Origin: Planctomycetota bacterium
GTDB lineage: Bacteria > Planctomycetota > MHYJ01 > WSZJ01
Assembly (NCBI GenBank): GCA_038060895.1
Contig: JBBTCT010000009.1
Span: 435,877 to 499,876 of the forward strand
Direction of reading: 5' to 3'
DNA: 64,000 nucleotides
Part shown: positions 18,308-31,588 of the stretch, one piece after another
How positions within the stretch are numbered: the stretch's first letter is position 1
How the letters are laid out: each line of letters begins with the position of its first letter
Made by a program: the position numbers and the translations under genes
Notes under the pieces: generated by a model
Database searches by the model: none
What the model was told of the DNA's origin: nothing
What the model saw: only the letters and a program-made list of their open reading frames with translations

Positions 18308-18416
18308 GGTGCTCCGATGCGCAGGCGCTGAAAAACACGCGGCGACTGCGCGGGATTACGCGGAATAAGCCCGTTCTGGGGCCGTTCGCGCAACAGGGAG
18401 CAAGGGGAGTGCCGCT

Positions 18417-19088
18417 TCAGTTCCGGGCGGTCGTCACCGGCTCGGCGGGTCGGATGTTGATTCCCCCGTCCGCCTCGATCGTCAATCGATAGGTGCGCCC
18501 GGCTTCCAGGCGCGTATAGACCGCCTCGCCCTGCGCCACGCGCACGCCCTTCGACCGCGCGAGATCGCCATCGTTCGTGTACTTCCAGAAATCCCGCCAA
18601 AGTTCTTCTTCGAAATTCCCGGCGCCGACGCGAAGCGCTTCGGGCACGCCGTCCACGGAAGCGGCGTCCAGAGGGAAACCGTCGTCGGGGGCCTGGTACT
18701 CGCCGAAGACGCGCCTGAAGAGGTGGAGGGAGCGGCCGCGGAGGGCGTCCGCGTCGCCGACGTAACGATCTTCGAATTTCAGGACCAGGGCGTCGAAGTA
18801 GGCCACGTCTCCCGAGATGGTGTAGGAGCGCGGCTGTTGGGCGTTACCGAGTCGATCGTAGGTGAGGAATCGGAAAGTCGTGCGCCGGTCTCGGCCGCGG
18901 GCGCCTTCCTGGGCGGTGACCACGACATCGGCGATCCGGAATTCCGTGCCGAGGCGCGCGATCATGTCGCGCATGCGCCGGTTATCGCGCTCGAGATCGC
19001 CCGCGCGTCGCTCACGGAGGAAGAGGCTCCAGCCGAGGACGGCGGCAAGGACCGAGAGGACGAATGTGGCGAGGAGGAGTTTCCGCAT
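18417..19088 (-). CDS. Membrane-anchored hypothetical protein
   Basis: N-terminal TM helix (MRKLLLATFVLSVLAAVLGW), coiled coil, globular domain; start inferred at ATG 19088. Confidence 0.75.
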   Translation of the reverse strand: MRKLLLATFVLSVLAAVLGWSLFLRERRAGDLERDNRRMRDMIARLGTEFRIADVVVTAQEGARGRDRRTTFRFLTYDRLGNAQQPRSYTISGDVAYFDALVLKFEDRYVGDADALRGRSLHLFRRVFGEYQAPDDGFPLDAASVDGVPEALRVGAGNFEEELWRDFWKYTNDGDLARSKGVRVAQGEAVYTRLEAGRTYRLTIEADGGINIRPAEPVTTARN

Positions 19089-19133
19089 GAGGTTGTTATC
19101 GGCTTGAAAGCGGAGACGGCTTGATGCGGAACT

Positions 19134-19169
19134 GGTTACTTCGGAGTAACCACCGGAAGATCCGGTAAC
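19134..19169. promoter_or_regulatory. Candidate enhancer (UAS): GGTTAC-N6-GTAACC palindrome plus a second GTAAC half-site 19 bp later
   Basis: GGTTACttcggaGTAACC at 19134-19151; GTAAC at 19165; motif recurs at 19393, 20968, 20991 and 25010. Confidence 0.6.
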
Positions 19170-19213
19170 AGAAAACGCACGGCGCCGGGGCCGGTTTCCC
19201 TCTGCGCGGCCCG

Positions 19214-19229
19214 CGGCACGGATCTTGCG
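19214..19229 (+). promoter_or_regulatory. Sigma-54 (-24/-12) promoter
   Basis: CGGCACGGATCTTGCG matches YGGCAC-N5-TTGC. Confidence 0.75.
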
Positions 19230-19239
19230 ACGTCTGGCC

Positions 19240-19390
19240 ACCAGGACAGAATCTCCCCGCGGGGCATTGACGCGCTGCGTCAATGCTCCGCGGCCACCTT
19301 TCCGCGCCGCCGAAGTTTTTATTTCGTGCGAGGCGCGCTCCCAGGAACCGCACCCGCTACCGGTGTCTTTTCGAAATAAAAACATCGGTC
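19240..19390 (+). ncRNA. Candidate structured ncRNA or leader RNA
   Basis: Lies downstream of the sigma-54 promoter; 17-bp hairpin at 19257-19293; 17-bp inverted repeat at 19310-19326/19372-19388; no credible ORF. Confidence 0.35.
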
Positions 19391-19392
19391 GT

Positions 19393-19427
19393 GTTACCCG
19401 CGCGCAACGAAACAGGACCCGAGTAAC
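19393..19427. promoter_or_regulatory. Candidate UAS: GTTAC-N6-GCAAC plus GTAAC 19 bp later
   Basis: GTTACccgcgcGCAAC at 19393-19408; GTAAC at 19423. Confidence 0.5.
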
Positions 19428-19470
19428 GCGCAATTCGCCTGAAACCGCAGCCTGCAATCGTTTGACGGTC

Positions 19471-19486
19471 TGGTCCGCGAATTGCA
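19471..19486 (+). promoter_or_regulatory. Sigma-54 (-24/-12) promoter for pilin cassette 0
   Basis: TGGTCCGCGAATTGCA (GG-N10-GC, with TTGCA). Confidence 0.65.
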
Positions 19487-19569
19487 AGAACTCAGAGCGG
19501 CCCGAAATTGACGCAGTGCGTCAAAACCCGGGGGCGCCCTGAAGGGCCCCGAGCCACTCGGAGGTCCGG

Positions 19570-20100
19570 ATGATTCCCGTCATTCCGCTTCGCCGTCCTT
19601 CGACGAAGCTCTCCACGCATCCGGGCCGGGGCGCACGCCACCGCGGCTTCACGTTGATCGAACTCGCGGTCGTCATCGCAATTCTCGTCTTCCTCATTTC
19701 CGGCCTCGGCGCCGTCTGCGCCGGCATGAGGGGCTCTTCCAGGGTCGAGTCAACCCGCTCCCTGATTCGTGCGCTCGACTCCGCCTGCGACTCCTACCGC
19801 AGCAAGCTCGGCTCCTACCCTGGTTTCCCTCGCGCCACCTCAGACACGACCGTTCTCCACCGGGCACTCTGTGTTCCCCTTCCCGCATCCGGCACCAACC
19901 GCCTCATCGGGCCGTTCATCGAGCTGCCGTCCAGCCGTCTCTCCTGCGCCCCGCAGATCCACGACGACTGGGGATGGCCCATCCGCTACTCGCTGCCGGG
20001 CGCGCTTCACGGCCGCGGCGCCGACAACTCGCGCCGCTTCGACCTCGACGCCACCAGCACGGAAGGCGGCGTCATCGGGAACTGGCCGGAAGCGCGCTGA
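19570..20100 (+). CDS. Prepilin/pseudopilin (GspG-like; paralog of 23032 and 25736)
   Basis: G|FTLIELAVVIAIL; DDWGWPIRYSLPG...SRRFDL...IGNWP. Confidence 0.8.
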   Translation: MIPVIPLRRPSTKLSTHPGRGARHRGFTLIELAVVIAILVFLISGLGAVCAGMRGSSRVESTRSLIRALDSACDSYRSKLGSYPGFPRATSDTTVLHRALCVPLPASGTNRLIGPFIELPSSRLSCAPQIHDDWGWPIRYSLPGALHGRGADNSRRFDLDATSTEGGVIGNWPEAR

Positions 20101-20124
20101 CGCCGCTTCTACTCGGAGAGAATC

Positions 20125-20913
20125 ATGAAGTCGAACCGACGTGGTTTTACGTTGATCGAACTGCTTGTCAGCGTCGCGCTCGCGTCGCTTCTTGTCACCG
20201 TCCTGGCCGTGCTCTTCTTCCGCACGACGTCGACGGTGGTCGCGGGTGAAGCGCGGATGGCGGTGTCTGAGGACGGGCGGCACGCCCTGGACCAGGTGGC
20301 GAGCGACCTCGAGAACATGCACCCGTCAACGAGCGCCGCTCAGCGCTTTCATGCGAGCGACGGTCCCGGCGACGCGACTCTTCCTGACGGGTCTGAAGCG
20401 AAGGACGCGCTGGCGATGGTGACGTCCACGATGGTGCCGGACGGTGCGGGCGGCCGGGTCCTGGCTACGGTGTTGTCGGAATACTTTCTGGCGGCGGAGA
20501 CGGACCCCGAGTTGTCGATCGCTGGTGGAACGGCGAATGCGATCCGGTCCGGCCGGCCGCTGAAGGCGCTGAAGAGGCGGACCTGGCGAATCACGAAGGA
20601 TGCGGCGCTCGGGGTCGTGAAGGGCGCGCTGCCGCTGAATCTGTCGGCGGCGACCGCGGCGGGGCTGGAGTTGATCGAAGAAAACACGCTGCACCAGTTC
20701 GTGATGTCGATGAACGTGGAGCTGTTTGAGAATCCGGCGTGGCGTGAGCTTCATGCCACGGGAAGTGCGCTGATCGCAGCGCTTCCGATCGGCGACGTCG
20801 CAGGCGAACCGGTGCTTCCACGGAAAGTTCGGATCTCTCTCCGGGTCATAGAAGGGTCCGGCGAGAACTGTGAGCGGCTTTTCCAGCGTGAATGTTGGGT
20901 TCCGGCGGAATAG
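20125..20913 (+). CDS. Prepilin (GspJ/PilW-like; paralog of 27679)
   Basis: G|FTLIELLVSVAL; C-terminus EPVLPRKVRISLRVIEG...ERLFQRECWVP. Confidence 0.85.
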   Translation: MKSNRRGFTLIELLVSVALASLLVTVLAVLFFRTTSTVVAGEARMAVSEDGRHALDQVASDLENMHPSTSAAQRFHASDGPGDATLPDGSEAKDALAMVTSTMVPDGAGGRVLATVLSEYFLAAETDPELSIAGGTANAIRSGRPLKALKRRTWRITKDAALGVVKGALPLNLSAATAAGLELIEENTLHQFVMSMNVELFENPAWRELHATGSALIAALPIGDVAGEPVLPRKVRISLRVIEGSGENCERLFQRECWVPAE

Positions 20914-20967
20914 GGGAGTGACCCAAATGGCTATTCACGCTGGACTTGAGACGCCGGTCCCGGTAAA

Positions 20968-21006
20968 GTTACCGCACGGTAACGTCAAGCATTACGGAGC
21001 GGTAAC
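20968..21006. promoter_or_regulatory. Two GTTAC-N6-GTAAC-type sites directly upstream of the regulator start
   Basis: GTTACcgcacgGTAAC at 20968-20983; ATTACggagcgGTAAC at 20991-21006; ATG at 21011. Confidence 0.6.
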
Positions 21007-21010
21007 GCCC

Positions 21011-22375
21011 ATGAGAGTGCTTCTCGCTGAAGACGAAAAGTCCATCGCCCTCACCCTCGGCGACGAACTCGAGGCTGCCGGTCACGAGGTTCTTCACAAG
21101 GCCGATGGCCTCGCCGCACTCGACTCGGCGCTCAACGGCGAGTTCGACGTCGTCATCTCGGACATCCGGATGCCTCACCTCGACGGTGAGCAGCTTCTCG
21201 CCCGGGTGAAAGAAGTGAAGCCCGACCTGCCCGTCGTCCTAATGACCGGCTTCGGGACGATGGAGTCCGTCATCAAGGCGATGCGCCTCGGCGCGTACGA
21301 CTACCTGCAGAAGCCGTTCGACACGCGCGAAGCCGTTCTGATTCTCGAACGGCTCCATCGCGAAATGGAGCTCAAGCGCCGCTGCGCCCAGCTCCAGGAA
21401 CAGCTCGAAGAAAAGTACCGCTTCGAAAACATCATCGGCACCTCGCCGAAGATGCAGTCGGTTTACCAGCTCATCAAGGCCGCCGCAGGAAATGATTTCC
21501 CCGTGCTCATCACCGGCGAAACCGGGACGGGAAAGGAACTCGTCGCACAGGCGATCCACCTGAATTCCAACCGCCGCAAGGGCGAGCTCGTGAAAGTGTC
21601 CTGCCAGAACTTCCCGGAGACGCTTCTCGAGGCGGAGCTTTTCGGCCACGAGAAGGGTGCGTTCACGGACGCGAAGGACCAGAAGATCGGACGCTTCGAG
21701 CGTGCTCACCGCGGCACCATTTTCATCGACGACATCGACGACATGCCATCGGGCGCGCAGGCAAAGATCCTGAACGTTCTCGCCGAACGCAAACTCGAGC
21801 GCCTCGGGGGAACGAAGACGATCCAGGTTGATATCCGCGTGATCACGGCGACGAAAGTCGACCTGCAGAAGCTCGTCCGCGACGGAAAGTTCCGCGACGA
21901 CCTCTTCTACCGCCTCAACGTCGTCCCGATCGACCTTCCTCCGCTGCGCGAGCGCGAAGGCGATCTCCCGTTCCTCATGAAAGAGTTCATCAAGAAATAC
22001 GCCGGCGGAAAGCACTTCACGATCTCCCCCTCCACGATGGCGGAGCTGGAGCACTACACGTGGCCGGGAAACGTCCGCGAGCTGGAAGCGGCGGTTCAGC
22101 GGGCGATTGCGCTTTCGGGTGACACGGGCGAGTTGCGTCGCGAGCACCTTGTGAGGATCACGGCAAACACGCCGAAAGAAGCGATGGTGAGGAGCGACCG
22201 GCGGCCGCTGAGGGACGTGCTGGTGGAAGCGGAGAAGGGGCACATCCTGAATGTGCTGAAGATCTGCAACAACAAGAAGGGTGAAGCGGCGGAGTTGCTG
22301 GGCATCAGCCGCAAGAATCTCTGGGAGAAGCTGAAGTCGTACGGGGTGGACGCGGGTGAGGATGCGGAGCGGTAG
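21011..22375 (+). CDS. Sigma-54-dependent response regulator (NtrC/PilR-like: REC-AAA-HTH)
   Basis: MRVLLAEDE; SDIRMP; GETGTGKE; GAFTDA; FRDDLFYRLNV; WPGNVREL; HTH LGISRKNLWEKLK. Confidence 0.95.
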   Translation: MRVLLAEDEKSIALTLGDELEAAGHEVLHKADGLAALDSALNGEFDVVISDIRMPHLDGEQLLARVKEVKPDLPVVLMTGFGTMESVIKAMRLGAYDYLQKPFDTREAVLILERLHREMELKRRCAQLQEQLEEKYRFENIIGTSPKMQSVYQLIKAAAGNDFPVLITGETGTGKELVAQAIHLNSNRRKGELVKVSCQNFPETLLEAELFGHEKGAFTDAKDQKIGRFERAHRGTIFIDDIDDMPSGAQAKILNVLAERKLERLGGTKTIQVDIRVITATKVDLQKLVRDGKFRDDLFYRLNVVPIDLPPLREREGDLPFLMKEFIKKYAGGKHFTISPSTMAELEHYTWPGNVRELEAAVQRAIALSGDTGELRREHLVRITANTPKEAMVRSDRRPLRDVLVEAEKGHILNVLKICNNKKGEAAELLGISRKNLWEKLKSYGVDAGEDAER

Positions 22376-22509
22376 GGAGGTGTCCGCGGGCGTTGAAACC
22401 GGTTCGCGCGCGGCAAAGTAGTCTCCGTATATGAAGGATCTTAACGATAAGTAAGCGTATGCGCCCTAAATAGTGACTGCCCGGGACTGAAACCCTGAAG
22501 GAGAAACCC

Positions 22510-23022
22510 ATGAGACGCGACGCTGGCCTGACGACGTTCGATCTCGTCATCATGATTTTCATTCTCGCCGTGGTCGCCTGGTTCGTCATCACCACCGGGA
22601 GCCCCGATCGCTGCCGTTCGAAACACAGCGTCGGACAGGCGACGATCCAGGACTTCAGCGTCGCCCTGAAGGCCTACGAGACCGATTTCGGCGCATATCC
22701 GCCGGACGAGCCCGGGAATTACATCACCACCGGCCGCAAGGGTTCGCTGATTGACCTCTTGTCCCGGCTGGGGCCGAAGCGGATCCCGTATTACGAATTC
22801 CGGAAGGACCAGATCGACTCGAAGGGACGGTGGGTCACGCTGTTCGGCAGTCCTTACAAGTACCGCTTGAACGCCGGTCGGCAGCCGCCTGCGACGCCGA
22901 GCCCTGAAACGATGATCAACTTCCACTCATTCGACATGTGGGCTTCGGGGTGCGGCGACGCCCCGGCCTGCGACCTGGAGACGTCCGAGCCCGCCACCAA
23001 AGCCACGATGAAAAACTGGTAG
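22510..23022 (+). CDS. Pilin-like protein, cassette A gene 1 (degenerate prepilin N-terminus)
   Basis: Colinear 170-aa paralog of 25214; N-terminus G|LTTFD instead of G|FTxxE. Confidence 0.8.
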   Translation: MRRDAGLTTFDLVIMIFILAVVAWFVITTGSPDRCRSKHSVGQATIQDFSVALKAYETDFGAYPPDEPGNYITTGRKGSLIDLLSRLGPKRIPYYEFRKDQIDSKGRWVTLFGSPYKYRLNAGRQPPATPSPETMINFHSFDMWASGCGDAPACDLETSEPATKATMKNW

Positions 23023-23031
23023 GAGAGAATC

Positions 23032-23646
23032 ATGCGCAAACACGGAAGCGGTTTCACGCTCATCGAACTTCTCGTCGTGATCGCCATCCTCGGCTTCCTC
23101 GCCGCGACGCTCGTCGTCGCCGCGGTGGGCCTGAAGCAGCGCGCGAAGATTGAGAAAACAGCCGCGCTGATAAAGCGCCTCGACACGGCGTGCGAGGCGT
23201 ACTTCACGAAGTTCCAGGACTATCCCAGCGATTTCGCCAGGCTCACCGCCGCGGACAAGCAGGCCAGCGTCACCTGGCCGACCATCGTCCCGAACGACAA
23301 GCTTCTCTTCGACTACCTGGGGCGGCCGCTCCAGGCCGCGACGAACTACAGCGCGGGAGGCGGAAAAATCGAGATGCTTTCGCCCTTTCTCGAGTTCACC
23401 ACTTCGGAAGTCTCCGGGCCCTGGACGGGCGCGAAGAGCGTGCAGATTCTCGATTCGTGGGGGAACCCGATCTGGTACGAGCTGCCCGGTTTTGCGCACG
23501 GCAGCGGCTTCCTCGACACTTCGCGCGGCCAGACCTCTTCCACGAACTCGCGCTTCGACCTGACCTCTGCCGGCGCGAACGGCACGGCGGACTCTCTGAC
23601 GGACAAGACCGACCCCAAGGACGACATCACGAACTGGAATCCCTAA
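23032..23646 (+). CDS. Prepilin, cassette A gene 2 (GspG-like)
   Basis: G|FTLIELLVVIAILG; LDSWGNPIWY; FDLTSAG; DDITNW. Confidence 0.9.
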   Translation: MRKHGSGFTLIELLVVIAILGFLAATLVVAAVGLKQRAKIEKTAALIKRLDTACEAYFTKFQDYPSDFARLTAADKQASVTWPTIVPNDKLLFDYLGRPLQAATNYSAGGGKIEMLSPFLEFTTSEVSGPWTGAKSVQILDSWGNPIWYELPGFAHGSGFLDTSRGQTSSTNSRFDLTSAGANGTADSLTDKTDPKDDITNWNP

Positions 23647-23659
23647 CGGAGGCTGACTC

Positions 23660-24283
23660 ATGCGACGCAACCAGGCCGGCTTCTCGATGATCGAAATGCT
23701 CGTGGTCATCACGATCATCCTCGTCCTCGTCACCGGCTCTATCTCGATCCTCGGGGTGTTCATGCGGGGGCAGGGACTCAAGCAGGGCGGGCGGATCGTC
23801 GGGACGCAGTTCATGAACGCGCGACAGAAGGCGTGTTCCGAAAAGTGCGTCTACTTCCTGCAGTTCGACACCGCGAAGCACGTCATGCGGCTATTCCGCG
23901 ACGCGGACCCGGACGGCCCCGCGGGACCGAAGACGTACGACCGGACGCTGCTCACCACCGGAGCCGACGCCGATGTGCAGGACGGGGACGAGCATCCGCT
24001 TCCCAACCACGTCGAGTTCGCGTGCAGCCAGCCCTGGGCGTCGGGGATTGCGGCGAAGTCGCTGACGAGCAGCACGCCGTTCGACGTCGCGGGTTCGACC
24101 TTCGCCATCGCGTTTTATCCGGACGGGAGCTGCCTGCTGCCGGTCTCCGAGATCGGATGGGATCCCGACGGGCTGAAGACGGCGGACCTGATGCTGATTC
24201 AGGAAGGCCAGTCCGGCCGCGTGTTCGTGGACATCAATCCGGCGTCGGGCAAGGTCAGGAAGCAGGCGTTTCGCACGGAGTAG
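23660..24283 (+). CDS. Prepilin, cassette A gene 3 (GspH/FimT-like)
   Basis: G|FSMIEMLVVITI; ARQKA; IAFYPDGS; INPASGKV. Confidence 0.9.
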   Translation: MRRNQAGFSMIEMLVVITIILVLVTGSISILGVFMRGQGLKQGGRIVGTQFMNARQKACSEKCVYFLQFDTAKHVMRLFRDADPDGPAGPKTYDRTLLTTGADADVQDGDEHPLPNHVEFACSQPWASGIAAKSLTSSTPFDVAGSTFAIAFYPDGSCLLPVSEIGWDPDGLKTADLMLIQEGQSGRVFVDINPASGKVRKQAFRTE

Positions 24284-24333
24284 ATCGACCGGCGTTTTCG
24301 CTGCACGGGAAGCATGCTGAAACAGGAGAGAAC

Positions 24334-24966
24334 ATGAAGCGCACTCACGGAAAGAACTCGGGATTCACGCTCATTGAAATACTGATCGCGCTGGTCATTC
24401 TCATGGTTGGAATCTGCGGAGTCCTCAGTCTTTTCCCGGTCGCGATCAAGAACGTGAGCGATTCGGTGGAAGACTCGACGGCGTCGAATCTGGCCCAGTC
24501 CCTGCATTCAGCGATGACGGAAGCGATGCGTCGGCCGGTGACGGGGGTCGTGACGGTGACGCACGACGGTTTGCCGGCGGGGACGCTGAGTTTCCCGCTT
24601 CCGGTTTCAGTCCTGGTTCCCGCGACCTATCCGGTGGCGGGGAGCGGGACGGATACGTGGCTGGAGACGTACCAGCTGGGGACGGACGTGCCGGTGGCTG
24701 CGCAAGTGGCGGACATTCGGTCGAGCGGGCTGGGCGGCGGGGATCCGACGGAGCCGACGACCCAGTATTCGTTCCAGTTTGAAGTGGTGAGGCCTGCGGA
24801 GTCCGTGATCGTGGTGGACACGGCGGGGACGATGACGAATCTGCCGCTCTACCAGTTCCGGTTCATGATCTACCGCGGGTATCGGCCGGCGGCCGTGGGG
24901 GTGGGGCAGGTGCACCCGGCGCTGGTGAAGGAGTTCACGACGCTGATTTCGGGGTCAGGAATTTAA
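24334..24966 (+). CDS. Prepilin, cassette A gene 4 (GspI/PilV-like)
   Basis: G|FTLIEILIALVILMVGICGVLSLFPVA; AGGAG RBS. Confidence 0.88.
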   Translation: MKRTHGKNSGFTLIEILIALVILMVGICGVLSLFPVAIKNVSDSVEDSTASNLAQSLHSAMTEAMRRPVTGVVTVTHDGLPAGTLSFPLPVSVLVPATYPVAGSGTDTWLETYQLGTDVPVAAQVADIRSSGLGGGDPTEPTTQYSFQFEVVRPAESVIVVDTAGTMTNLPLYQFRFMIYRGYRPAAVGVGQVHPALVKEFTTLISGSGI

Positions 24967-25009
24967 GCAAGCGGGTCAGGGGAGAGACGGTTCCGCGTTT
25001 CGAGAAGAG

Positions 25010-25044
25010 GGCACCGCCAGGTAACGCAGTAACGCCGAAGTAAC
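25010..25044. promoter_or_regulatory. Candidate tandem UAS
   Basis: GGCACcgccagGTAAC-gca-GTAACgccgaaGTAAC; right half-sites 19 bp apart. Confidence 0.5.
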
Positions 25045-25131
25045 CCCACCGTTGGTGAAGGTGCTTCAGATTTACCTGTAAAAAGAGCCAAAGTACGTGA
25101 TTCAGGGCATATGAAGAGGAAAGTCGGCTTA

Positions 25132-25147
25132 GGGCCTTGGATTTGCG
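25132..25147 (+). promoter_or_regulatory. Sigma-54 (-24/-12) promoter for pilin cassette B
   Basis: GGGCCTTGGATTTGCG (GG-N10-GC, with TTGC). Confidence 0.55.
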
Positions 25148-25213
25148 TTTCGGTATTGGCGGGCCGAAATACACCCGCTTCCACCCGGTTTTAACGAAAT
25201 TCAGGAGATCGCC

Positions 25214-25726
25214 ATGCGCCAGAGCCGTGGCTTCACGATCGTCGAACTGCTCGTCGTTGTCACCATCATCGGCATTCTGGCGGCGCTTCTTCTGCCCGCC
25301 CTGAGCGCCGCGCGCTGCCGCAGCAAGCACAGCGCGAGCCAGGCAACGGTCCAGGATTTCTCCGTCGCGCTGAAAGCGTACGAGACGGACTTCGGCCGGT
25401 ATCCCCCGGAAGAAGCCGGCAACTACGTCACTCAGCTGGCGGCCGCTTCGCTCATCAACATCATGTCCTCGAACGGACCCAAGAACATTCCTTACTACCA
25501 GTTCCGCGCGGACCAGATCAACCCCGGCAAGCAGTGGATCACTTCGCTCAGCACTCCCTACAAGTACCGGGAGAACGCGAGCAAGGTGAAGCCTGCGACG
25601 CCGAGCCCGCTGACGATGATGAATTTCTTCAGCTTCGACATGTGGGCCTGCGGGTGCGGCGATCAGCCGGCTTGCAGCCAGACGACGTCTGATCCCGCTG
25701 ACAAAGCCAACATCAAGAACTGGTAG
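25214..25726 (+). CDS. Prepilin, cassette B gene 1 (GspG/major pilin-like)
   Basis: G|FTIVELLVVVTIIGILAALLLPALSAAR; ALKAYETDFGRYPP. Confidence 0.92.
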   Translation: MRQSRGFTIVELLVVVTIIGILAALLLPALSAARCRSKHSASQATVQDFSVALKAYETDFGRYPPEEAGNYVTQLAAASLINIMSSNGPKNIPYYQFRADQINPGKQWITSLSTPYKYRENASKVKPATPSPLTMMNFFSFDMWACGCGDQPACSQTTSDPADKANIKNW

Positions 25727-25735
25727 GAGAAGCGC

Positions 25736-26356
25736 ATGCGCAGAACGAATTCAGGCTTTTCGCTGATCGAGCTCCTCGTGGTGATCGCGATTCTGGGCTT
25801 CCTGGCGGCGACGTTGACGATTGCCGCGGCGGGGCTGAAGCAGCGGTCGAACATCGAGAAGACGGCGGCCCTTGTGCGTCGCATCGACGCGGGAGTCGAG
25901 GCTTACTTCACGAAGTTCCACGACTACCCGTCGGACTACGCGAAGCTCACCGCTGCCGACAAGAAGGCCGCAAAGGTCTGGCCGACGATCAAGAGCGACA
26001 AGTACCTGTACGACTACCTGGGCAAGCCGCTGACCGTGACCGAAGGATTCGTCGCCACGGGTTCGAAGATCAAGAACCTGGAGCCGTTCTGCGAGATGAA
26101 TGCGTCCGAGATCCTCGGGCCGGACAGCGGCCCTCATACCGTCCAGGTGCTCGACGCCTGGCGTGGGCCGATCTGGTACGAGCTTCCCGGATACGCTCAC
26201 GGCACGAATTTCCCTGACCGGTCCAAGGGGGAAGTGTCTTCGACCGACTCCAAGTTCGACCTGACTTCGGCCGGACCTGACAAGGTGTGCGATTCGTTCC
26301 TGGACAAGCTTCTCCCGGATGACGACGTGACGAACTGGACCTACGACCGCAAATAG
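25736..26356 (+). CDS. Prepilin, cassette B gene 2 (GspG-like)
   Basis: G|FSLIELLVVIAILG; LDAWRGPIWY; FDLTSAGPD; DDVTNW. Confidence 0.9.
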   Translation: MRRTNSGFSLIELLVVIAILGFLAATLTIAAAGLKQRSNIEKTAALVRRIDAGVEAYFTKFHDYPSDYAKLTAADKKAAKVWPTIKSDKYLYDYLGKPLTVTEGFVATGSKIKNLEPFCEMNASEILGPDSGPHTVQVLDAWRGPIWYELPGYAHGTNFPDRSKGEVSSTDSKFDLTSAGPDKVCDSFLDKLLPDDDVTNWTYDRK

Positions 26357-26366
26357 GGGCCAAATC

Positions 26367-26987
26367 ATGCGCAAGTCGAACGGTGGCTTCTCGATGGTTG
26401 AAATGCTGGTCGTCGTGACCATCATTCTCGTGATGGTGACCGGCTCGATTTCGATCCTCGGGGTGTTCATGCGGGGCCAGGGCATCAAGCAGGCCGGTCG
26501 TGTGATCAGCGGGCAGTTCATGAACGCCCGGCAGAAGGCGAGTTCCGAAAAGTGCGTCTACTTTCTCGTGTTCGACTCGTCCAAGCAGGTGCTGCGGCTT
26601 TACAGGGACAACGACCCGGATGGACCGACCGGTCCCAAGACCTACGATCGCACGCTTGTCCTGACGGGCGTGGACAAGGATGTCCAGGAAGGTGACGAGC
26701 ACCCTCTTCCCAAGAACGTTGAAATCGGCTGCAACCAGGCCTGGGCGTCCATCTCGGCCAAGTGCATGACGAGCACGGCGCCGTTCAACGTGCCGGGGTC
26801 GTCCTTCTGGATCAGCTTTTACCCGGATGGCACATGCGTCATGCCGGCCGCCGAGAAAACGTATGACCCCGACGTGGCTCTGACCGCGGACCTGATCCTG
26901 GTTCAGAACGGTCAGACGAGCAAGCTGTACGTCGACATCAACCCGGCCTCGGGAAAAATCCGCAAGCAGGCGTTCCGTACGCAATAG
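26367..26987 (+). CDS. Prepilin, cassette B gene 3 (GspH/FimT-like)
   Basis: G|FSMVEMLVVVTI; ISFYPDGT; INPASGKI. Confidence 0.9.
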   Translation: MRKSNGGFSMVEMLVVVTIILVMVTGSISILGVFMRGQGIKQAGRVISGQFMNARQKASSEKCVYFLVFDSSKQVLRLYRDNDPDGPTGPKTYDRTLVLTGVDKDVQEGDEHPLPKNVEIGCNQAWASISAKCMTSTAPFNVPGSSFWISFYPDGTCVMPAAEKTYDPDVALTADLILVQNGQTSKLYVDINPASGKIRKQAFRTQ

Positions 26988-26996
26988 GAGACGATC

Positions 26997-27638
26997 ATGA
27001 AGCGCGTTCGCAGGCCTGATGCCGGGTTCACGCTGATCGAGATCCTCATTTCCCTCGTAATCTTGATGGTGGGGATCTGCGGCATCCTGAGCCTCTTCCC
27101 GGTTGCGATCAAGAACGTGAGCGATTCGGTGGAAGACTCCGCCGCGTCCAACCTCGCGCAGTCGCTGTATTCCTCGATGACGGAGGCGATGAGGCGGCCC
27201 GTGACGGGCGTGGTCTACCTGACGCACGACGGACTTCCCGCCGGCCTCTTCAATTTTCCTCTTCCCGTGACCGTGGGCGCGCCGGTGCTCTACCCGGCCC
27301 CCGGAGCCGGAACGGATCCGACGCTTGCGGTTTACCAGCTCGGGACGGATACCCGGACGTTGGGCCAGGTGACGGACATCCGGACGCCTCCGCCGGCATG
27401 GTCTCTTGGCGGCGATCCTTCGGAACCGACCCGGCAGTACTCGTTCCAGTTCGAAGTCAGCAAGCCGCCGGAATCCGTCATCGTCGTGGATACGGCGGGG
27501 ACGACGACCAACCTGCCTTTGTTCCAGTTCCGCTTCATCATCTACCGCAGCTACTTCACCACTGTCGTGCCGGTGGGTCAGACGCACCCCGCGCAGGTCA
27601 AGGAGTTCACGACGTTCATCGCGGGAACGGGTATCTAG
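26997..27638 (+). CDS. Prepilin, cassette B gene 4 (GspI/PilV-like)
   Basis: G|FTLIEILISLVILMVGICGILSLFPVA. Confidence 0.9.
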   Translation: MKRVRRPDAGFTLIEILISLVILMVGICGILSLFPVAIKNVSDSVEDSAASNLAQSLYSSMTEAMRRPVTGVVYLTHDGLPAGLFNFPLPVTVGAPVLYPAPGAGTDPTLAVYQLGTDTRTLGQVTDIRTPPPAWSLGGDPSEPTRQYSFQFEVSKPPESVIVVDTAGTTTNLPLFQFRFIIYRSYFTTVVPVGQTHPAQVKEFTTFIAGTGI

Positions 27639-27678
27639 GCTTCGACTCGCTTCGCCAGCCCAGGCTTCGGAGACGATC

Positions 27679-28590
27679 ATGAAACGAAATTCAGGCTTTA
27701 CGCTGATGGAGTTGCTGGTGGCGGTTGGCTTGATGGTGATCCTGATGACCGCCATCGTGCTGATCTTCCACCGCTCGACGGACGTCATGAAGATCCAGGG
27801 CGCGCGCATCGATATTTATGAGAATGCGCGGGCGGCCCAGGACATCTTCTGCAACGACATGCAGAACGCCATTCCTTCCTCGGGCGGCCAGCAGCGCATG
27901 TGGATCGCGAACTACGCCCGCCCTGCGTCTGCGCCAGTGCCGATCGGCAACAACACGGATGGCGCCGCGGATTACGTCGGTGTCGTCACGGTGACCACCT
28001 GTCCCGCGGGCTCCGGAGCGACCGCGACACGCGAGTTGAAGACCGTCTACGCCGAGTACTTCCTCACGAACGACGACGACGCCGAGACATCTTTCACAGG
28101 GAAGGGATACACGAAGGCCCAGCGCAGCCAGCGCAGGATTTTCGTCCTCAAGCGCCGCCTGTGGGCTCTTCCGACCCTGATCACGACGCTTCAGATTCAG
28201 CAGATTTCCGCGATTCCGATCCTGTCCACGCCGCTGACTTCGCCCACGGGTCCCCTGACGGTGACGAACAACATGACGCCTCCGGGCCCGTCGCCCGCGA
28301 CGATGACGCTGATCGAGGACGCCGACCTGTGCCACTGGATCGTGTCGTTCAACATCGAGTGTTACCACTACATCGCCGCTTCAGCCCCGGGCCCGCTCAA
28401 CCCGAAGTACTACGAGCTGAACGAGTCCGGCAATCCGTACGTTGCTGCGGTGATGCCGCTGGGCGACCTGCCGGGATCCGAGCCTGTCATTCCCCGGAAA
28501 CTGCGGATGTCGCTGCGAGTCATCGAAGGCGCCGCCGAGAGGCAGGAACGGCTTCTCCAGCGCGAAGTCTGGCTCCCGCTGGGCGGCTAG
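27679..28590 (+). CDS. Prepilin, cassette B gene 5 (GspJ/PilW-like)
   Basis: G|FTLMELLVAVGL; C-terminus EPVIPRKLRMSLRVIEG...ERLLQREVWLP. Confidence 0.9.
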   Translation: MKRNSGFTLMELLVAVGLMVILMTAIVLIFHRSTDVMKIQGARIDIYENARAAQDIFCNDMQNAIPSSGGQQRMWIANYARPASAPVPIGNNTDGAADYVGVVTVTTCPAGSGATATRELKTVYAEYFLTNDDDAETSFTGKGYTKAQRSQRRIFVLKRRLWALPTLITTLQIQQISAIPILSTPLTSPTGPLTVTNNMTPPGPSPATMTLIEDADLCHWIVSFNIECYHYIAASAPGPLNPKYYELNESGNPYVAAVMPLGDLPGSEPVIPRKLRMSLRVIEGAAERQERLLQREVWLPLGG

Positions 28591-28608
28591 CACAAAAGCG
28601 TCATAACG

Positions 28609-28640
28609 ACCCCGGGGGCGGTTCCCCGGGGTTTTTTTTT
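28609..28640 (+). terminator. Rho-independent terminator after the pilin locus
   Basis: ACCCCGGGGG-CGGT-TCCCCGGGGT followed by a T run. Confidence 0.9.
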
Positions 28641-28720
28641 CGGCCCTGCCGCGCTTCCCATGGCGGACGAAGAAGCGTAAAATGTCCGCTTCCACGCACG
28701 CTGACTCCCGGAGAAGCGCC

Positions 28721-31588
28721 ATGTCCGAAGCCCAGACCGGCCCTGCCCTTGACCCCGAGAAGATGGTGGGCCAGGAGATCGGGGGCTGCAAGATTGTCGC
28801 GAAGATCGCGACGGGCGGCATGGGCACGGTCTACAAGGCGCACCAGGTTTCGATGAGCCGCCAGGTGGCGATCAAGTGCCTTGCGGAGGATTTTGCGAAG
28901 GACCAGCAGTACGTGACGCGGTTTGTGAGGGAAGCGCGGGCGGCGGGCGAGCTGAATCACACGAACCTTATTCACGTGCATGACGTGGGCATTTACCACG
29001 GCGTGTATTACTACATCATGGAGTTTGTGGACGGGCAGAGCCTGGACCGGGTGCTTCGGATCAAGGAGCGGCTGGGGCCGGAGACGGTGGTGGAGATCCT
29101 TCTGCAGTCCGCGAAGGCGCTTTCGTATGCGCACGGGCACGACATCATTCACCGGGACATCAAGCCCGACAACCTGATGATCACGAAGGAAGGCACGGTC
29201 AAGATTGCCGATCTGGGGATTGCGAAGAAGGTTGACCGGACGAGGGAATCGACGGATGCGGGGCTGGTGCTGGGCACGCCGAACTACATGGCGCCCGAGC
29301 AGGCGACGGATGCGGCGCTGACGGACAGGCGGAGCGACGTGTATGCGCTGGGCTCAACGGTTTACCACATGCTTTCGGGCAGGCCTCCCTACACGGGAAA
29401 GAACGCGCTTGAGATTCTGACGAGCGTGGTGAAGCGAAAGCCCGAGCCGATCGAGAAATTGCGACCGGACCTGCCGAAGCATCTGCTTCAGATCATTAAC
29501 AAGATGATGGCGCGGGATCCGGAGCGGCGGTACCAGTCGATGGACGAGCTGGTCAAGGACGTCGAGATGTACAAGTCCGGCAAGTACAAGTCGGAGAAGC
29601 CCTCGACCCGGGGTGCGACCTGGGAAGACGAGGACGACGATGCCCCGAAGACCAAAGTTGCGATCGAGATGGCCTCGACGCAGGAAGAGGAGGCTCGGCA
29701 GTCCGCGGCGGGGCAGCCGCCGGGTGTGCAGGCCACGGGGCCTTCTTCGGTCGACAACATCAAGCTGTCGGGCACGCGCGTAGCGCCGAACCCGGCGCTG
29801 GGGACGGTGGACCTGATCGGCGCGAAGGCGATCGGCGCCATCAACGCGAAGAAGAAGAGCAAGATGATCCCGATCATCACGCTGGTCGGGGGGCTTGCGA
29901 TTGCGGCGATCGGGTGGAAGATCGTGAAAAACCTGACGGCTCCCCCGAAGAAGGAGCCGCCGAAGCCGAGCATCAACACGGACATCAAGGACAGCGGCAT
30001 TCCGCGCGCTGCGGGAGAAGCAGAGGCCAAGGAGCTGTTCGCGGAGGCCGAAAAGCAGGAGCGGCGTCCCGGGTTGCCGCGATTGGACGTCATCAAGGCC
30101 TACCAGCAGGTGGTGGATCAATACCCCGATACCGTCGCGGGTCACAATGCGGGCAAGGCTGTTGATCGTCTGGAGGGCGAATGGCAGGAGGCGGTGGGGG
30201 TGCCCCTGGTCAAGGGGCGGAAGCTGATGTCCGAGATGGGACCGGTGGCAGATTTCACGCCCGTGCGGGACGCGCTCTCCAGGGCGAGGTCCGAGGCCCA
30301 GGGGCGGGCAGAACTGGTCGAGCGGGTCAAGGCGGCGGAGAAAGAATGTGAAGACGGCGCGCGCGACCGGCAGCAGAAGATCCTTCAGGACGCGCGCGAG
30401 AAGGCCCGGCAGGGGCGGTGGGAAGACGCCATTGAGGAAGGGAAGAAGGTTTTCGTTCTGAGGTACGAGAAATTCGACGACGAAGCGGTGAGGGAAATCG
30501 GCATCTGGCGCGGCAAGTGGCGCGAAGTCCACGACGAGGCGCTCAAGGGCCTCGATGCGACGATTGAGCGGGCGAAGGAGAAATTCCGCGGCAGCGAGGA
30601 CCCGAAGGTCGAGATGGAGCCAGGGCGCGCTGCGGAGATGATTGCCAACGCTGCCAAGGACCCGAAGAACCTGGCCATCAAGAAGGTGGCCGACCACCTT
30701 GCCGCGATCTTTGCCGACGCTTCGGCCGTGACGGATGCGGCATGGGCGCAGGTCGATGCGATGAAGGGGCAGCGGTACAAGTTCAGCAAAGAAGCGTACC
30801 CGAACAACCAGCCCGTCGAAATCGTCGCCGCGGAACGGCCCATCGTGCGGGTGAAGTTCGGAGCGCAGGTCATCAAGACGAAGGCGCTGACCCACGAAGA
30901 CATGTGGACGCTCGCGAGAATGTCGCTGGATGCGAACGATGCCGGGAAGACGAAACTCGCCGCCTACCTGTTCGCGCGCGGGAACACGGCGGAGGCGATC
31001 AAGCTTGCGGCGGGAACCGGAGGGCAGGCCGCGGCCGACCTGCGTGCGCGGCTGGAGGATCTACAGATCCGCCTGAAGGAGCTGAAAACCAGGCCGCTGG
31101 ACCTCATTCGCCACAGCGGCGGGAACTGGAACGAGCAGACGCAGAAGGGCGGCTGGACGCCGCGCGAGGGAGGGGCGGAAATTGACGGCTCGGGCGACCA
31201 GGGCGAGAGGATCCTCTCGAAATCGCTGGAGTCCAACTACATCTTCGAGGTCGAGGCGCGGAAAGAACTCGGCCCCAACGGCTTCGTCGTCTACTTCAAG
31301 GCGCTCGGAGTGTCCTACCAGTGGCACGTCGGGGACGGCGGCAACAAGTTCTCCGTGGTCCGCGGTCTTCCCTCGACTCAGTCAGCCGACGTCTTGAGCC
31401 CGGGCGACCCTCTCCTGGTCCGCGTCGTCGTCCTCGACGACAAGGCCATCGGCTACGTGAACGGCGAGCGCCGATGGGAGATCACACGCTCGACTCCCGG
31501 CAACGCCACCGGCGCGCCTGGCACAGGCCTTGGTGTGTTCCACACCCTCGTCCGCTTCAGGAAGATCCTCATCTGGGACATCAAGTAG
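28721..31588 (+). CDS. Membrane Ser/Thr protein kinase with helical extracytoplasmic region and C-terminal beta-sandwich
   Basis: GGMGTVYKA, VAIK, HRDIKPDN, DLGIA, GTPNYMAPE; TM segment IPIITLVGGLAIAAIGW; start 28721 has a GGAG RBS, while ATG 28682 lies in a TAAAAT -10-like box. Confidence 0.92.
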   Translation: MSEAQTGPALDPEKMVGQEIGGCKIVAKIATGGMGTVYKAHQVSMSRQVAIKCLAEDFAKDQQYVTRFVREARAAGELNHTNLIHVHDVGIYHGVYYYIMEFVDGQSLDRVLRIKERLGPETVVEILLQSAKALSYAHGHDIIHRDIKPDNLMITKEGTVKIADLGIAKKVDRTRESTDAGLVLGTPNYMAPEQATDAALTDRRSDVYALGSTVYHMLSGRPPYTGKNALEILTSVVKRKPEPIEKLRPDLPKHLLQIINKMMARDPERRYQSMDELVKDVEMYKSGKYKSEKPSTRGATWEDEDDDAPKTKVAIEMASTQEEEARQSAAGQPPGVQATGPSSVDNIKLSGTRVAPNPALGTVDLIGAKAIGAINAKKKSKMIPIITLVGGLAIAAIGWKIVKNLTAPPKKEPPKPSINTDIKDSGIPRAAGEAEAKELFAEAEKQERRPGLPRLDVIKAYQQVVDQYPDTVAGHNAGKAVDRLEGEWQEAVGVPLVKGRKLMSEMGPVADFTPVRDALSRARSEAQGRAELVERVKAAEKECEDGARDRQQKILQDAREKARQGRWEDAIEEGKKVFVLRYEKFDDEAVREIGIWRGKWREVHDEALKGLDATIERAKEKFRGSEDPKVEMEPGRAAEMIANAAKDPKNLAIKKVADHLAAIFADASAVTDAAWAQVDAMKGQRYKFSKEAYPNNQPVEIVAAERPIVRVKFGAQVIKTKALTHEDMWTLARMSLDANDAGKTKLAAYLFARGNTAEAIKLAAGTGGQAAADLRARLEDLQIRLKELKTRPLDLIRHSGGNWNEQTQKGGWTPREGGAEIDGSGDQGERILSKSLESNYIFEVEARKELGPNGFVVYFKALGVSYQWHVGDGGNKFSVVRGLPSTQSADVLSPGDPLLVRVVVLDDKAIGYVNGERRWEITRSTPGNATGAPGTGLGVFHTLVRFRKILIWDIK

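Follow-up and report, generated by a model that had tools for sequence, protein, structure and literature searches.

Control of pilin genes by PilS-PilR and RpoN is known from Pseudomonas, Myxococcus and Geobacter. Likewise, RpoN2-PilRX controls type IV pilin genes in Xanthomonas oryzae, according to the available part of PMC7170775. Spare minor-pilin sets for one machine are established in Myxococcus and Synechocystis, as far as the available text of the reports extends. The type IVa system of Myxococcus xanthus has multiple clusters of minor pilins and PilY1, the PilY1 paralogs being differentially expressed in an HsfBA-dependent manner (PMC9109919, PMC7541494, PMC8833165), and in Synechocystis PCC 6803 two sets prime two specialised filaments that have one machine in common (PMC13759059). 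Here, a locus of eleven prepilin-type genes around a sigma-54 activator gene was analyzed in a stretch of 64,000 nucleotides (the window) from an uncultured groundwater Planctomycetota bacterium (assembly GCA_038060895.1; 5.4 Mb, 47 contigs, 86.5% complete). Hardly any work has been done on type IV filaments in Planctomycetota, and no publication on such loci was found in the literature searched. We lean towards the reading that the locus encodes a core pilin set and an accessory paralogous set under one regulator, with alternative switching between the sets unproven.

As far as the published accounts are available, the locus shares with M. xanthus paralogous minor-subunit sets for one machine, transcriptional control and proposed different tips. 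It differs in that the duplicated unit adds major-pilin-like and GspG-like genes and lies in tandem around the regulator instead of being dispersed. In addition, no PilY1 was seen in the window, where no dedicated PilY1 search was made, and the locus is known from its genes alone. With Synechocystis, it shares two conserved priming sets and a shared machine; the large PilX-type subunit of Synechocystis is proposed to act as a cap in the available part of PMC13759059. In contrast to the Synechocystis sets, those of the locus are recent lineage-specific duplicates, 58–72% identical, one of which is eroding. What is new here is the tandem duplication of whole cassettes around the regulator, including a major-pilin-like gene, with one set frozen, the other in flux, and the K-like partner unlinked. 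Compared across genomes, the locus shows in compact form how cassette duplication creates spare pilin sets, which are then pruned gene by gene while the I-J-type pair is kept. It also offers concrete elements in its three conserved sigma-54 promoters and in a putative enhancer motif and operator. Should the accessory set indeed alter tip or surface, the principle of one machine with several priming sets would extend to a third phylum beyond Myxococcus and the cyanobacteria.

The eleven prepilin-type open reading frames (ORFs) lie on the plus strand at 19570–28590, all where the initial annotation had placed them, and form three paralogous groups around the activator. They are labelled by cassette (0, with 0_t2 and 0_t5; A, with A_t1–A_t4; B, with B_t1–B_t5) and by pilin type (t1–t5); lengths are given in amino acids (aa).

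19570..20100, plus strand: 0_t2, diverged GspG-like prepilin of 176 aa with a long 25-aa leader; PF07963 at 28.5 bits
20125..20913, plus strand: 0_t5, GspJ-like prepilin of 262 aa; PF07963
21011..22375, plus strand: activator, NtrC/PilR-type response regulator with receiver, sigma-54 AAA+ domain with GAFTDA loop, and HTH_8
22510..23022, plus strand: A_t1, pilin-like protein of 170 aa with the degenerate N-terminal motif G|LTTFD (the bar marks the cleavage position)
23032..23646, plus strand: A_t2, GspG-like prepilin of 204 aa; PF07963, and PF08334 at 26.2 bits (cut-off 21)
23660..24283, plus strand: A_t3, GspH / Verru_Chthon-D-like prepilin of 207 aa; PF07963, and TIGR02596 at 27 bits, below its cut-off
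24334..24966, plus strand: A_t4, GspI-like prepilin of 210 aa; fold evidence from the B_t4 model
25214..25726, plus strand: B_t1, candidate major pilin of 170 aa; PF07963
25736..26356, plus strand: B_t2, GspG-like prepilin of 206 aa
26367..26987, plus strand: B_t3, GspH / Verru_Chthon-D-like prepilin of 206 aa
26997..27638, plus strand: B_t4, GspI-like prepilin of 213 aa
27679..28590, plus strand: B_t5, GspJ-like prepilin of 303 aa
32410..33462, plus strand: PilT-type retraction ATPase (PF00437), 3.8 kb after B_t5

The Pfam N-methylation domain PF07963 scored above the cut-off in 10 of the 11 prepilin-type proteins. The exception, A_t1, had no Pfam match and appears to be an atypical prepilin. 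Global protein identity between A and B was 58% for t1, 62% for t2, 69% for t3 and 72% for t4. In comparison, 0_t2 was 43% and 40% identical to A_t2 and B_t2, respectively, and 0_t5 was 42% identical to B_t5. Matches between paralogs by tblastn had E-values of 1e-47 to 1e-100, and no full-length copies were found by tblastn elsewhere in the 5.4-Mb assembly. Thus, ORFs, Pfam matches and identities of 40–72% confirmed eleven genes in three paralogous cassettes around the activator, as well as the offset of about 2.7 kb between A and B (22510 versus 25214) and a pilT gene about 4 kb downstream.

Long blocks had been described as identical between the copies, and these (DFSVALKAYETDFG, VTGSISILGVFMRGQG, SLFPVAIKNVSDSVEDS and ESVIVVDTAGT) were indeed present. 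In windows of 20 residues, conserved and variable segments alternate between A and B (in t4, for example, 95, 85 and 90%, then 40%, then 90%). For t2–t4, the N-terminal 60 columns were 75–82% identical and the remainder 55–67%; in t1 the N-terminus (40 columns) was the least conserved part. Only 51–61% of the codons for identical residues were the same codon, long identical blocks contained 2–13 same codons each, and the synonymous divergence (dS) between A and B was 0.9–1.3. The longest exact nucleotide runs of t1–t3 were unremarkable by permutation (184, 262 and 65 of 1000, respectively), the exception being a 35-nt run in t4 that was reached in 2 of 1000 permutations. Gene conversion as the origin of the identical blocks was ruled out by the many synonymous differences, the dS values and the permutations, the t4 run excepted. 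Since the identical blocks carry so many synonymous differences, they were kept by purifying selection instead.

Homologs of B_t4 were searched in 41 genomes including the own one, and 36 matched at E ≤ 1e-5, many over the N-terminus only. Within the genus, six of the seven other genomes matched; G004 (82% complete) did not. The loci of the own genome (G000), six genus relatives and G015, which belongs to another family, had the following layouts.

G000 (own genome) and G003: 0_t2, 0_t5, activator, A_t1–A_t4, B_t1–B_t5
G002: layout as in G000, with A_t1 as a 92-aa, in-frame internally deleted ORF
G005: A_t1 as a 73-aa mini-ORF; A_t3 absent; contig end inside B_t5
G001: A_t3 absent
G006: complete 0-type t1–t5 cassette upstream of the activator; no A; then B_t1–B_t5
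G007: 0_t2 only, activator, B_t1–B_t5
G015: activator, t1, t2, t3, t3, t4, t4, t5; LpxH-like and PilT genes nearby

The activator and B_t1–B_t5 were thus found in all seven genus genomes examined, so that B behaves as a fixed core. Cassette A occurred in five of the seven and cassette 0 varied. A non-B pair of t4 and t5 was kept in six of the seven genomes. The activator was 79–96% identical in six genus genomes, and the kinase, the LpxH-like gene and PilT follow downstream in six of seven (the contig of G005 ends earlier, inside B_t5).

Selection was compared by dN/dS, the ratio of nonsynonymous to synonymous divergence, calculated after Nei and Gojobori for G000 versus G002, G003, G001 and G005. 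It was lowest for B (0.04–0.20; B_t1 0.09–0.18) and reached 0.12–0.49 in A, with A_t1 highest, and 0.14–0.38 in 0; A exceeded its B counterpart in 12/12 comparisons. These values are rough, because interspecies dS (0.5–1.5) is near saturation. Neutral decay of 0 and A, which the initial annotation had named as an outcome that would speak against its own view, is therefore not supported at these ratios. The data support purifying but relaxed selection on A and 0, which lose parts piecemeal, A eroding gene by gene. The GC content at third codon positions, taken from the genes of a crude gene caller, was 0.78–0.82 for 0_t2 and 0_t5 and 0.84–0.89 for A_t1–A_t3, like that of neighbouring genes.

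The erosion can be followed in individual genes. The deletions of A_t3 in G001 and G005 have differing junctions, the leader of A_t4 being t3-like in G005 and t4-like in G001, and in trees G001 groups with G003, which retains A_t3; the two losses were therefore independent. The A_t1 motif is degenerate in G000 and G003. The mini A_t1 ORFs of G002 (L013:5820-6100, 92 aa) and G005 (L014:5915-6135, 73 aa) arose by in-frame internal deletions and retain the membrane helix and a Cys-containing C-terminal segment (WASGCGDAPAC...KNW).

Such losses would also be expected if A and 0 were redundant duplicates on their way out, without a distinct role and kept transiently or for dosage. The dN/dS of A at 2 to 6 times that of B in all 12 comparisons, the repeated loss of A_t3, the deleted or degenerate A_t1, the shrinkage of 0, which has five genes in G006, to two genes or, in G007, a single one, and the failure to retain sigma-54 elements upstream of A all fit this explanation. 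We nevertheless consider it rather unlikely, since in each genome examined the remaining copies are intact ORFs whose dN/dS lies well under 1 (dS about 0.6–1.5), the A_t1 deletions kept frame, membrane helix and Cys-containing C-terminus, the non-B t4 and t5 pair persists in six of seven genomes, and RNA-library contigs (see below) cover the 0_t5/activator and A_t1/A_t2 junctions. On the favoured reading of a core and an accessory set, the latter would be functional, under relaxed constraint and dispensable in parts. It would keep a second I-J (t4 and t5) nucleating pair, and filaments primed by this pair on the same machine could differ in tip or surface.

Trees were obtained by quick LG+G4 searches with support from the Shimodaira-Hasegawa-like approximate likelihood ratio test (SH-aLRT) only. 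In the t2, t3 and t4 trees, A grouped with B and not with 0; the t1 tree left the grouping unresolved. The 0_t2 clade (seven genomes, SH-aLRT 100) and the 0_t5 clade (six genomes, support 99) were separate and long-branched, and 0_t3 and 0_t4 of G006 branched outside A and B. By these trees, A is a duplicate of B type, and 0 is what is left of an older five-gene duplicate, which only G006 still has in full. Thus, 0 and A together make up a second complete set by content, as had been proposed and as the t4 and t5 pair kept in the relatives underlines, yet this set is composite in origin.

Promoters were detected by a weighted scan for -24/-12 elements and then by alignments of the seven genus genomes, in which the invariance of columns was recorded.

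19135..19169, plus strand: enhancer-like cluster 1, GTTAC-N6-GTAAC plus GGTAAC; columns invariant in the seven genus genomes
19214..19229, plus strand: sigma-54-type promoter P1 (CGGCACGGATCTTGCG); GGCACG..TTGC invariant in 7/7; RNA-library contig 19295-19495 downstream
19267..19283, strand not assigned: 17-bp palindrome TTGACGCnnnGCGTCAA, copy 1; arms invariant in 7/7
19393..19427, plus strand: enhancer-like cluster 2, GTTACC ... GTAAC
19471..19486, plus strand: sigma-54-type promoter P2 (TGGTCCGCGAATTGCA); GG..TTGCA invariant in 7/7
19508..19524, strand not assigned: the same 17-bp palindrome, copy 2; CCGAAAT just before
20968..21006, plus strand: enhancer-like cluster 4, GTAAAGTTACC, GGTAAC, GGTAAC; directly before the activator ATG; invariant in 7/7, flanks vary
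25020..25044, plus strand: enhancer-like cluster 3, GGTAAC, GTAAC, GTAAC; TAAC repeats invariant in 7/7
25132..25147, plus strand: sigma-54-type promoter P3 (GGGCCTTGGATTTGCG); GGCC..G.A.TTGCG invariant in 7/7
28608..28643, plus strand: intrinsic-terminator-like hairpin with T run; stem of 11 pairs, 8 of them GC; no other strong one in the locus

P1–P3 are predicted to be sigma-54-dependent promoters, and GTAAC/GTTAC motifs precede each of them by about 45–110 nt in invariant columns. Conserved sigma-54 promoters were found in two regions only, upstream of 0 and upstream of B. Before A, neither the scan nor an alignment with the B promoter region revealed a conserved -24/-12 element; the sequence upstream of A_t1 partly aligns with that region (shared CATATGAAG) and lacks a -24/-12 element where P3 has one. 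The idea of three separately promoted cassettes was therefore not upheld. The leaders after P2 (19495–19508) and P3 (25150–25185) share GGCCCGAAAT/GGGCCGAAAT, which suggests that the promoter region was duplicated along with the cassette. Between the activator and A_t1, an AT-rich element at 22420–22470 (TATATGAAGGATCTTAACGATAAGTAAGC...) is conserved in the five A-bearing genomes; it aligns in part with the B promoter region, lacks the -24/-12 elements and may be a promoter of another class. G001 carries an inserted tandem repeat, (GGCTGGCGGA)n, between these two genes (L016:4563-4700). A scan for sigma-70-type promoters gave 3 sites versus 1.2 expected, none of them intergenic before a cassette, and an Rfam scan of 18300–29000 returned three chance-level matches only (E 0.13–0.93, far below gathering scores).

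The most economical transcript model would comprise two units, one running from P1/P2 through 0, the activator and A, and one from P3 through B. B would be the core operon (t1 major-pilin-like, t2 GspG-, t3 GspH-, t4 GspI- and t5 GspJ-like), driven by its own P3 with GTAAC enhancer sites and ending at the only strong terminator. The P1/P2 unit, with 0_t2, 0_t5, the activator and then A_t1–A_t4, would supply the accessory paralogous subunits. Since A has neither a sigma-54 promoter nor a terminator before it, it is probably read with the activator, via read-through or an unrecognised promoter. GTAAC/GTTAC sites are common to the promoter regions of 0 and B, a pattern that suggests that one activator induces both and speaks less for an either/or choice. 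The local activator would probably induce the two sets jointly and also activate its own gene, and the palindromes after P1 and P2 may add control of the accessory unit.

Contigs from four metatranscriptome runs were compared with the locus, three from one aquifer sample (X6, X9 and X11) and one from an ice sample (X14, which contains a relative that is about 95% identical); the contigs are of low depth, and the libraries may contain DNA. Contigs identical to the window covered 19295–19495 (downstream of P1 and across P2), 20625–20950 (the 0_t5/activator junction), 21847–22177 (within the activator), 22845–23046 (the A_t1/A_t2 junction) and 25013–25321, the last crossing P3 from upstream. B_t1–B_t5 were covered by at least 12 identical contigs, and the kinase gene was also covered. 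No listed contig fell on 23410–24942 (A_t3, A_t4), where depth was zero in the three aquifer-sample runs, which are too shallow to show absence. In two studies, contigs start at 25164 and 25166, i.e., 18–20 nt after the -12 GC of P3, a weak hint at the transcription start of P3.

The initial annotation had seen in the cassettes alternative subunit sets that let one machine build filaments with different surfaces, the 0/A and B units being switched on under different conditions. The paralogous sets are there; that one machine builds different surfaces with them is something we infer. Two separate promoter regions exist, and the palindrome follows P1 and P2 but not P3, so that a further factor could control just one of the units. 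Conserved blocks are interspersed with variable segments, and precedents are given by the differential regulation of paralogous tip sets in M. xanthus (PMC9109919) and the two priming sets of Synechocystis (PMC13759059), as far as the available text of both reports extends. We regard such alternative use of the sets as doubtful. The 0 and B regions share promoter class and GTAAC motif, which does not favour it, no terminator separates the units, and RNA contig 25013–25321 crosses P3 from upstream. Moreover, A_t1, the major-pilin-like paralog, is degenerate or shortened in four of five genomes, and an alternative major subunit is therefore unlikely.

The activator encodes PF00072 (E 1.5e-23), PF00158 (E 1.2e-66) and PF02954 (E 7e-10), the domains of the NtrC/PilR class. 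With PilS-PilR/RpoN control, as far as described in the available text of the reports, the locus shares a sigma-54 response regulator encoded beside the pilins and -24/-12 promoters that immediately precede the first of these genes. In contrast, its activator has a GAFTDA loop and lies between cassettes, the enhancer would be GTAAC, and no cognate sensor kinase gene was seen beside it among the scanned neighbours. Cluster 4 lies unchanged before 21011 in all seven genomes, and the upstream ATG is missing from G006; the activator therefore most likely starts at 21011, not 20870 or 20927. The gene for the sigma factor, rpoN, is present on contig C10. Of the 35 GTAAC/GTTAC motifs in the window, 11 sit in about 1 kb of intergenic regions of the locus, which also holds four of the five genome-wide clusters of at least three such motifs within 45 nt.

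The products are most likely subunits of a type IV filament, probably of a retractile type IVa-like pilus under the PilR-like activator. The order of genes had been likened to GspG-G-H-I-J, and this assignment of t1–t5 is reasonable, being best supported for I and J by the folds of t4 and t5. Profiles of t1 matched major type IVa pilins (Geobacter PilA-N, 5e-13; Thermus PilA4, 1.7e-10; M. xanthus PilA) and aligned with Neisseria meningitidis PilE over positions 7–151 (2e-7); GspG was also matched. Hence t1 is a candidate major pilin resembling type IVa. The matches of the t2 profile were similar, over the N-terminal 65–75 residues. With the curated models, t1 and t2 reached 20–52 bits for TIGR01710 (GspG; cut-off 88.85) within residues 1–79 only, below the level of GspG major pseudopilins; for PF08334, B_t1 (17.7) and B_t2 (18.4) stayed below the cut-off that A_t2 passes. 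For t3, TIGR02596 gave 26–27 bits versus 70 (residues 8–173) and TIGR01708 19–21 bits versus 80, short of GspH, and its profile matched only the N-terminal helix of solved chains among Protein Data Bank (PDB) sequences. TIGR02523 (PilV) gave 42–44 bits versus 52.2 for t4, and TIGR01707 (GspI) stayed below its cut-off. For t5, sub-threshold NCBIfam matches to Verru_Chthon C and HpsC were obtained, those to HpsB/HpsC being weak, and PF11612 did not match.

Structure predictions complemented these searches. The AlphaFold2 model of B_t4 had a mean predicted local distance difference test (pLDDT) score of 75. Among 48,161 chains, only three reached Z ≥ 5, and all were of the I type: GspI (3ci0_I), XcpV (5bw0_B) and EpsI (2ret_A), with Z 6.6–6.7, root-mean-square deviations of 3.0–3.1 Å and 82–84 of 83–89 residues aligned. 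Foldseek of the same model against the PDB gave nothing at E ≤ 0.001. The B_t5 model (mean pLDDT 65, four disordered stretches) yielded EpsJ/XcpW entries, i.e., GspJ-type proteins, at all Foldseek ranks 1–12; these matches were weak (E 4e-3 to 7e-2), with template modelling scores of 0.51–0.69 relative to the target. Thus, by predicted fold, t4 appears to resemble GspI and t5 GspJ. A predicted complex of A_t4 and 0_t5 scored 0.28 versus a mark of 0.32, without controls.

The likeness to the type II secretion system (T2SS) GspG-H-I-J-K (3ci0, 2ret, 3cfi, 5bw0, 5vtm) hence lies in the order G-G-H-I-J and the folds of t4 and t5. The differences are that t4 and t5 contain insertions and have roughly double the size of GspI and GspJ, that the curated models are not reached, that the locus has no adjacent K, that PilT is syntenic and that a separate canonical T2SS exists elsewhere in the genome. 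A further likeness is to the Verru_Chthon cassette (TIGR02596, 02598, 02599 and 02600), of which D, B and C were the best or near-best sub-threshold matches to t3, t4 and t5, and whose large A protein matches the N-terminus of an unlinked 1220-aa protein. The scores are, however, far below the cut-offs (for example 27 versus 70, 31–34 versus 256.5 and 23.9 versus 332 bits), and the A-like gene lies on another contig.

Several observations weigh against the reading of a core and an accessory set under one regulator, in addition to the near-saturated dS noted above. First, GTAAC is only modestly enriched genome-wide. GG-N8-TTGC sites with at least three upstream motifs numbered 6, versus 1–3 for three control pentamers, and those with at least two numbered 13, versus 10–50 for the controls, which are 1.5 to 5.6 times commoner than GTAAC/GTTAC. 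Second, the genome has 21 strong matches to sigma-54 activators, and the local activator therefore need not be the GTAAC binder; its GAFTDA loop is one change from the consensus GAFTGA. Third, because the RNA data are low-depth contigs with possible DNA carry-over, the cassettes cannot be ranked by RNA. Fourth, the t3 and t4 trees nest A inside a five-genome B clade (SH-aLRT 88–96), in conflict with the t2 tree, which puts A_t2 outside the seven-genome B_t2 clade (support 99); the timing of the A duplication thus differs between these trees. Fifth, no family-level sequence score for G, H, I, J or PilV reaches its curated cut-off, PF08334 in A_t2 excepted. Finally, since the minor pilins of type IVa pili share the H/I/J/K folds, the fold matches do not discriminate between a T2SS and a type IV pilus.

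As had been noted, the window has no assembly ATPase, platform or secretin gene: family searches of the whole genome placed no T2SSE match besides PilT, no T2SSF and no secretin there, and no K/X-type (GspK/PilX) gene was present among the window ORFs scanned. The genome contains six full-length GspE/PilB-type ATPase matches plus several PilT-like ones, three platform proteins, six secretin matches, three PilM matches and one prepilin peptidase (PF01478, on C37). A canonical GspD-E-F cluster on C12 has its own full-scoring GspG (two copies) and GspJ; the locus therefore more likely serves another machine. Candidates are a PilB-PilC pair on C24 (at the contig end) and a PilB-PilT pair on C11. 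PilM homologs lie near secretin matches on C36 and, within about 7–12 kb, on C10. With the syntenic PilT, the candidate parts of a type IVa system include PilB-PilC, PilB-PilT, PilM and secretins elsewhere in the genome.

A filament that is no surface pilus but a T2SS-like pseudopilus would be another explanation, in which the G-G-H-I-J sets and a K-like protein export the signal-peptide proteins encoded behind promoters of the same kind. The best matches are indeed to T2SS pseudopilins (TIGR01710 for t1/t2, GspI for t4, GspJ for t5), and a 1220-aa GspK / Verru_Chthon_A-like protein and several secreted proteins are encoded behind GTAAC plus sigma-54 modules. We judge this explanation improbable in view of the canonical GspD-E-F cluster with full-scoring GspG and GspJ on C12, the PilT synteny kept in the genus and in another family, the nearly full-length match of the t1 profile with a major type IVa pilin and the PilM homologs near secretins on C36 and C10.

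The 1220-aa protein is encoded on C11 (L059:4068-7730, i.e., G000:C11:54067-57729; relatives L061–L067). Its N-terminus is weakly similar to GspK (E 1.7e-4) and Verru_Chthon_A (8.6e-6), far below the cut-offs, and its gene has as neighbours that of a secretin-like protein of 246 aa and another two genes. GTAAC clusters and sigma-54-type sites lie ahead of three of these C11 genes. The K-like family (about 1200 aa) occurs in 8/8 genus genomes, with up to six near-full-length matches per genome (G004, three in tandem), and the first ~90 residues are nearly invariant (RGFVLLVALGVLGVLGLLAATFATLSRVER). A GTAAC cluster and a -24/-12-like site precede six of the seven K-like gene starts examined, the start in L063 being the exception. 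A search for K-like proteins inside the pilin loci of the relatives gave no match. The K-like proteins are candidate exchangeable tip proteins.

The palindrome of P1 and P2 has 52 copies in the 5.4-Mb assembly, 41 inside predicted coding regions (two reading frames) and 11 intergenic, as split with a crude gene caller. Its flanks are not conserved genome-wide. It occurs in 10–52 copies in 8/8 genus genomes; outside the genus, 29 of 33 genomes had none and the other four had 1–3, and a reversed control pattern gave 0–1 copies. It looks like a genus-specific site of a genome-wide DNA-binding factor or an uptake-signal-like element. A bolder reading would be that the PilR-like activator, via GTAAC, runs a lineage-specific modular fibre system of a fixed core operon, an evolving accessory set within the operon of the activator itself and a multi-copy family of unlinked ~1200-aa GspK-like tip proteins, and that the palindrome, with its two invariant copies after P1 and P2, couples the choice to the global state of the cell through such a factor or element. 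This is unlikely in our view; if true, it would let the cell fit a single pilus machine with varying tips and surfaces. Further sigma-54-type sites with 2–3 GTAAC/GTTAC motifs upstream were seen at C1:522994, C9:112498, C9:230872, C22:180732 and C24:14258, mostly before genes for signal-peptide or membrane proteins. They serve only as a lead to a wider regulon, as part of them may be chance according to the control motifs.

The closest named record to B_t4 was from a Planctomycetota metagenome-assembled genome (MAG; 92% identical, L020). The B_t5 family is tiny: a search of 5.8 billion sequences gave 23 clusters at E ≤ 1e-5. Its named relatives, from Planctomycetes, Planctomycetia and Brocadiae MAGs, carry generic names such as 'type II secretion system protein' or 'prepilin-type ... 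domain-containing protein'. Between B_t5 and PilT, 28682–31588 encodes a 968-aa Ser/Thr kinase and an LpxH-like phosphoesterase, for which a regulatory tie to the pilus is possible. The whole window contains four large Ser/Thr kinases, and in G015 a 1111-aa ORF lies between the pilin cassette and PilT.

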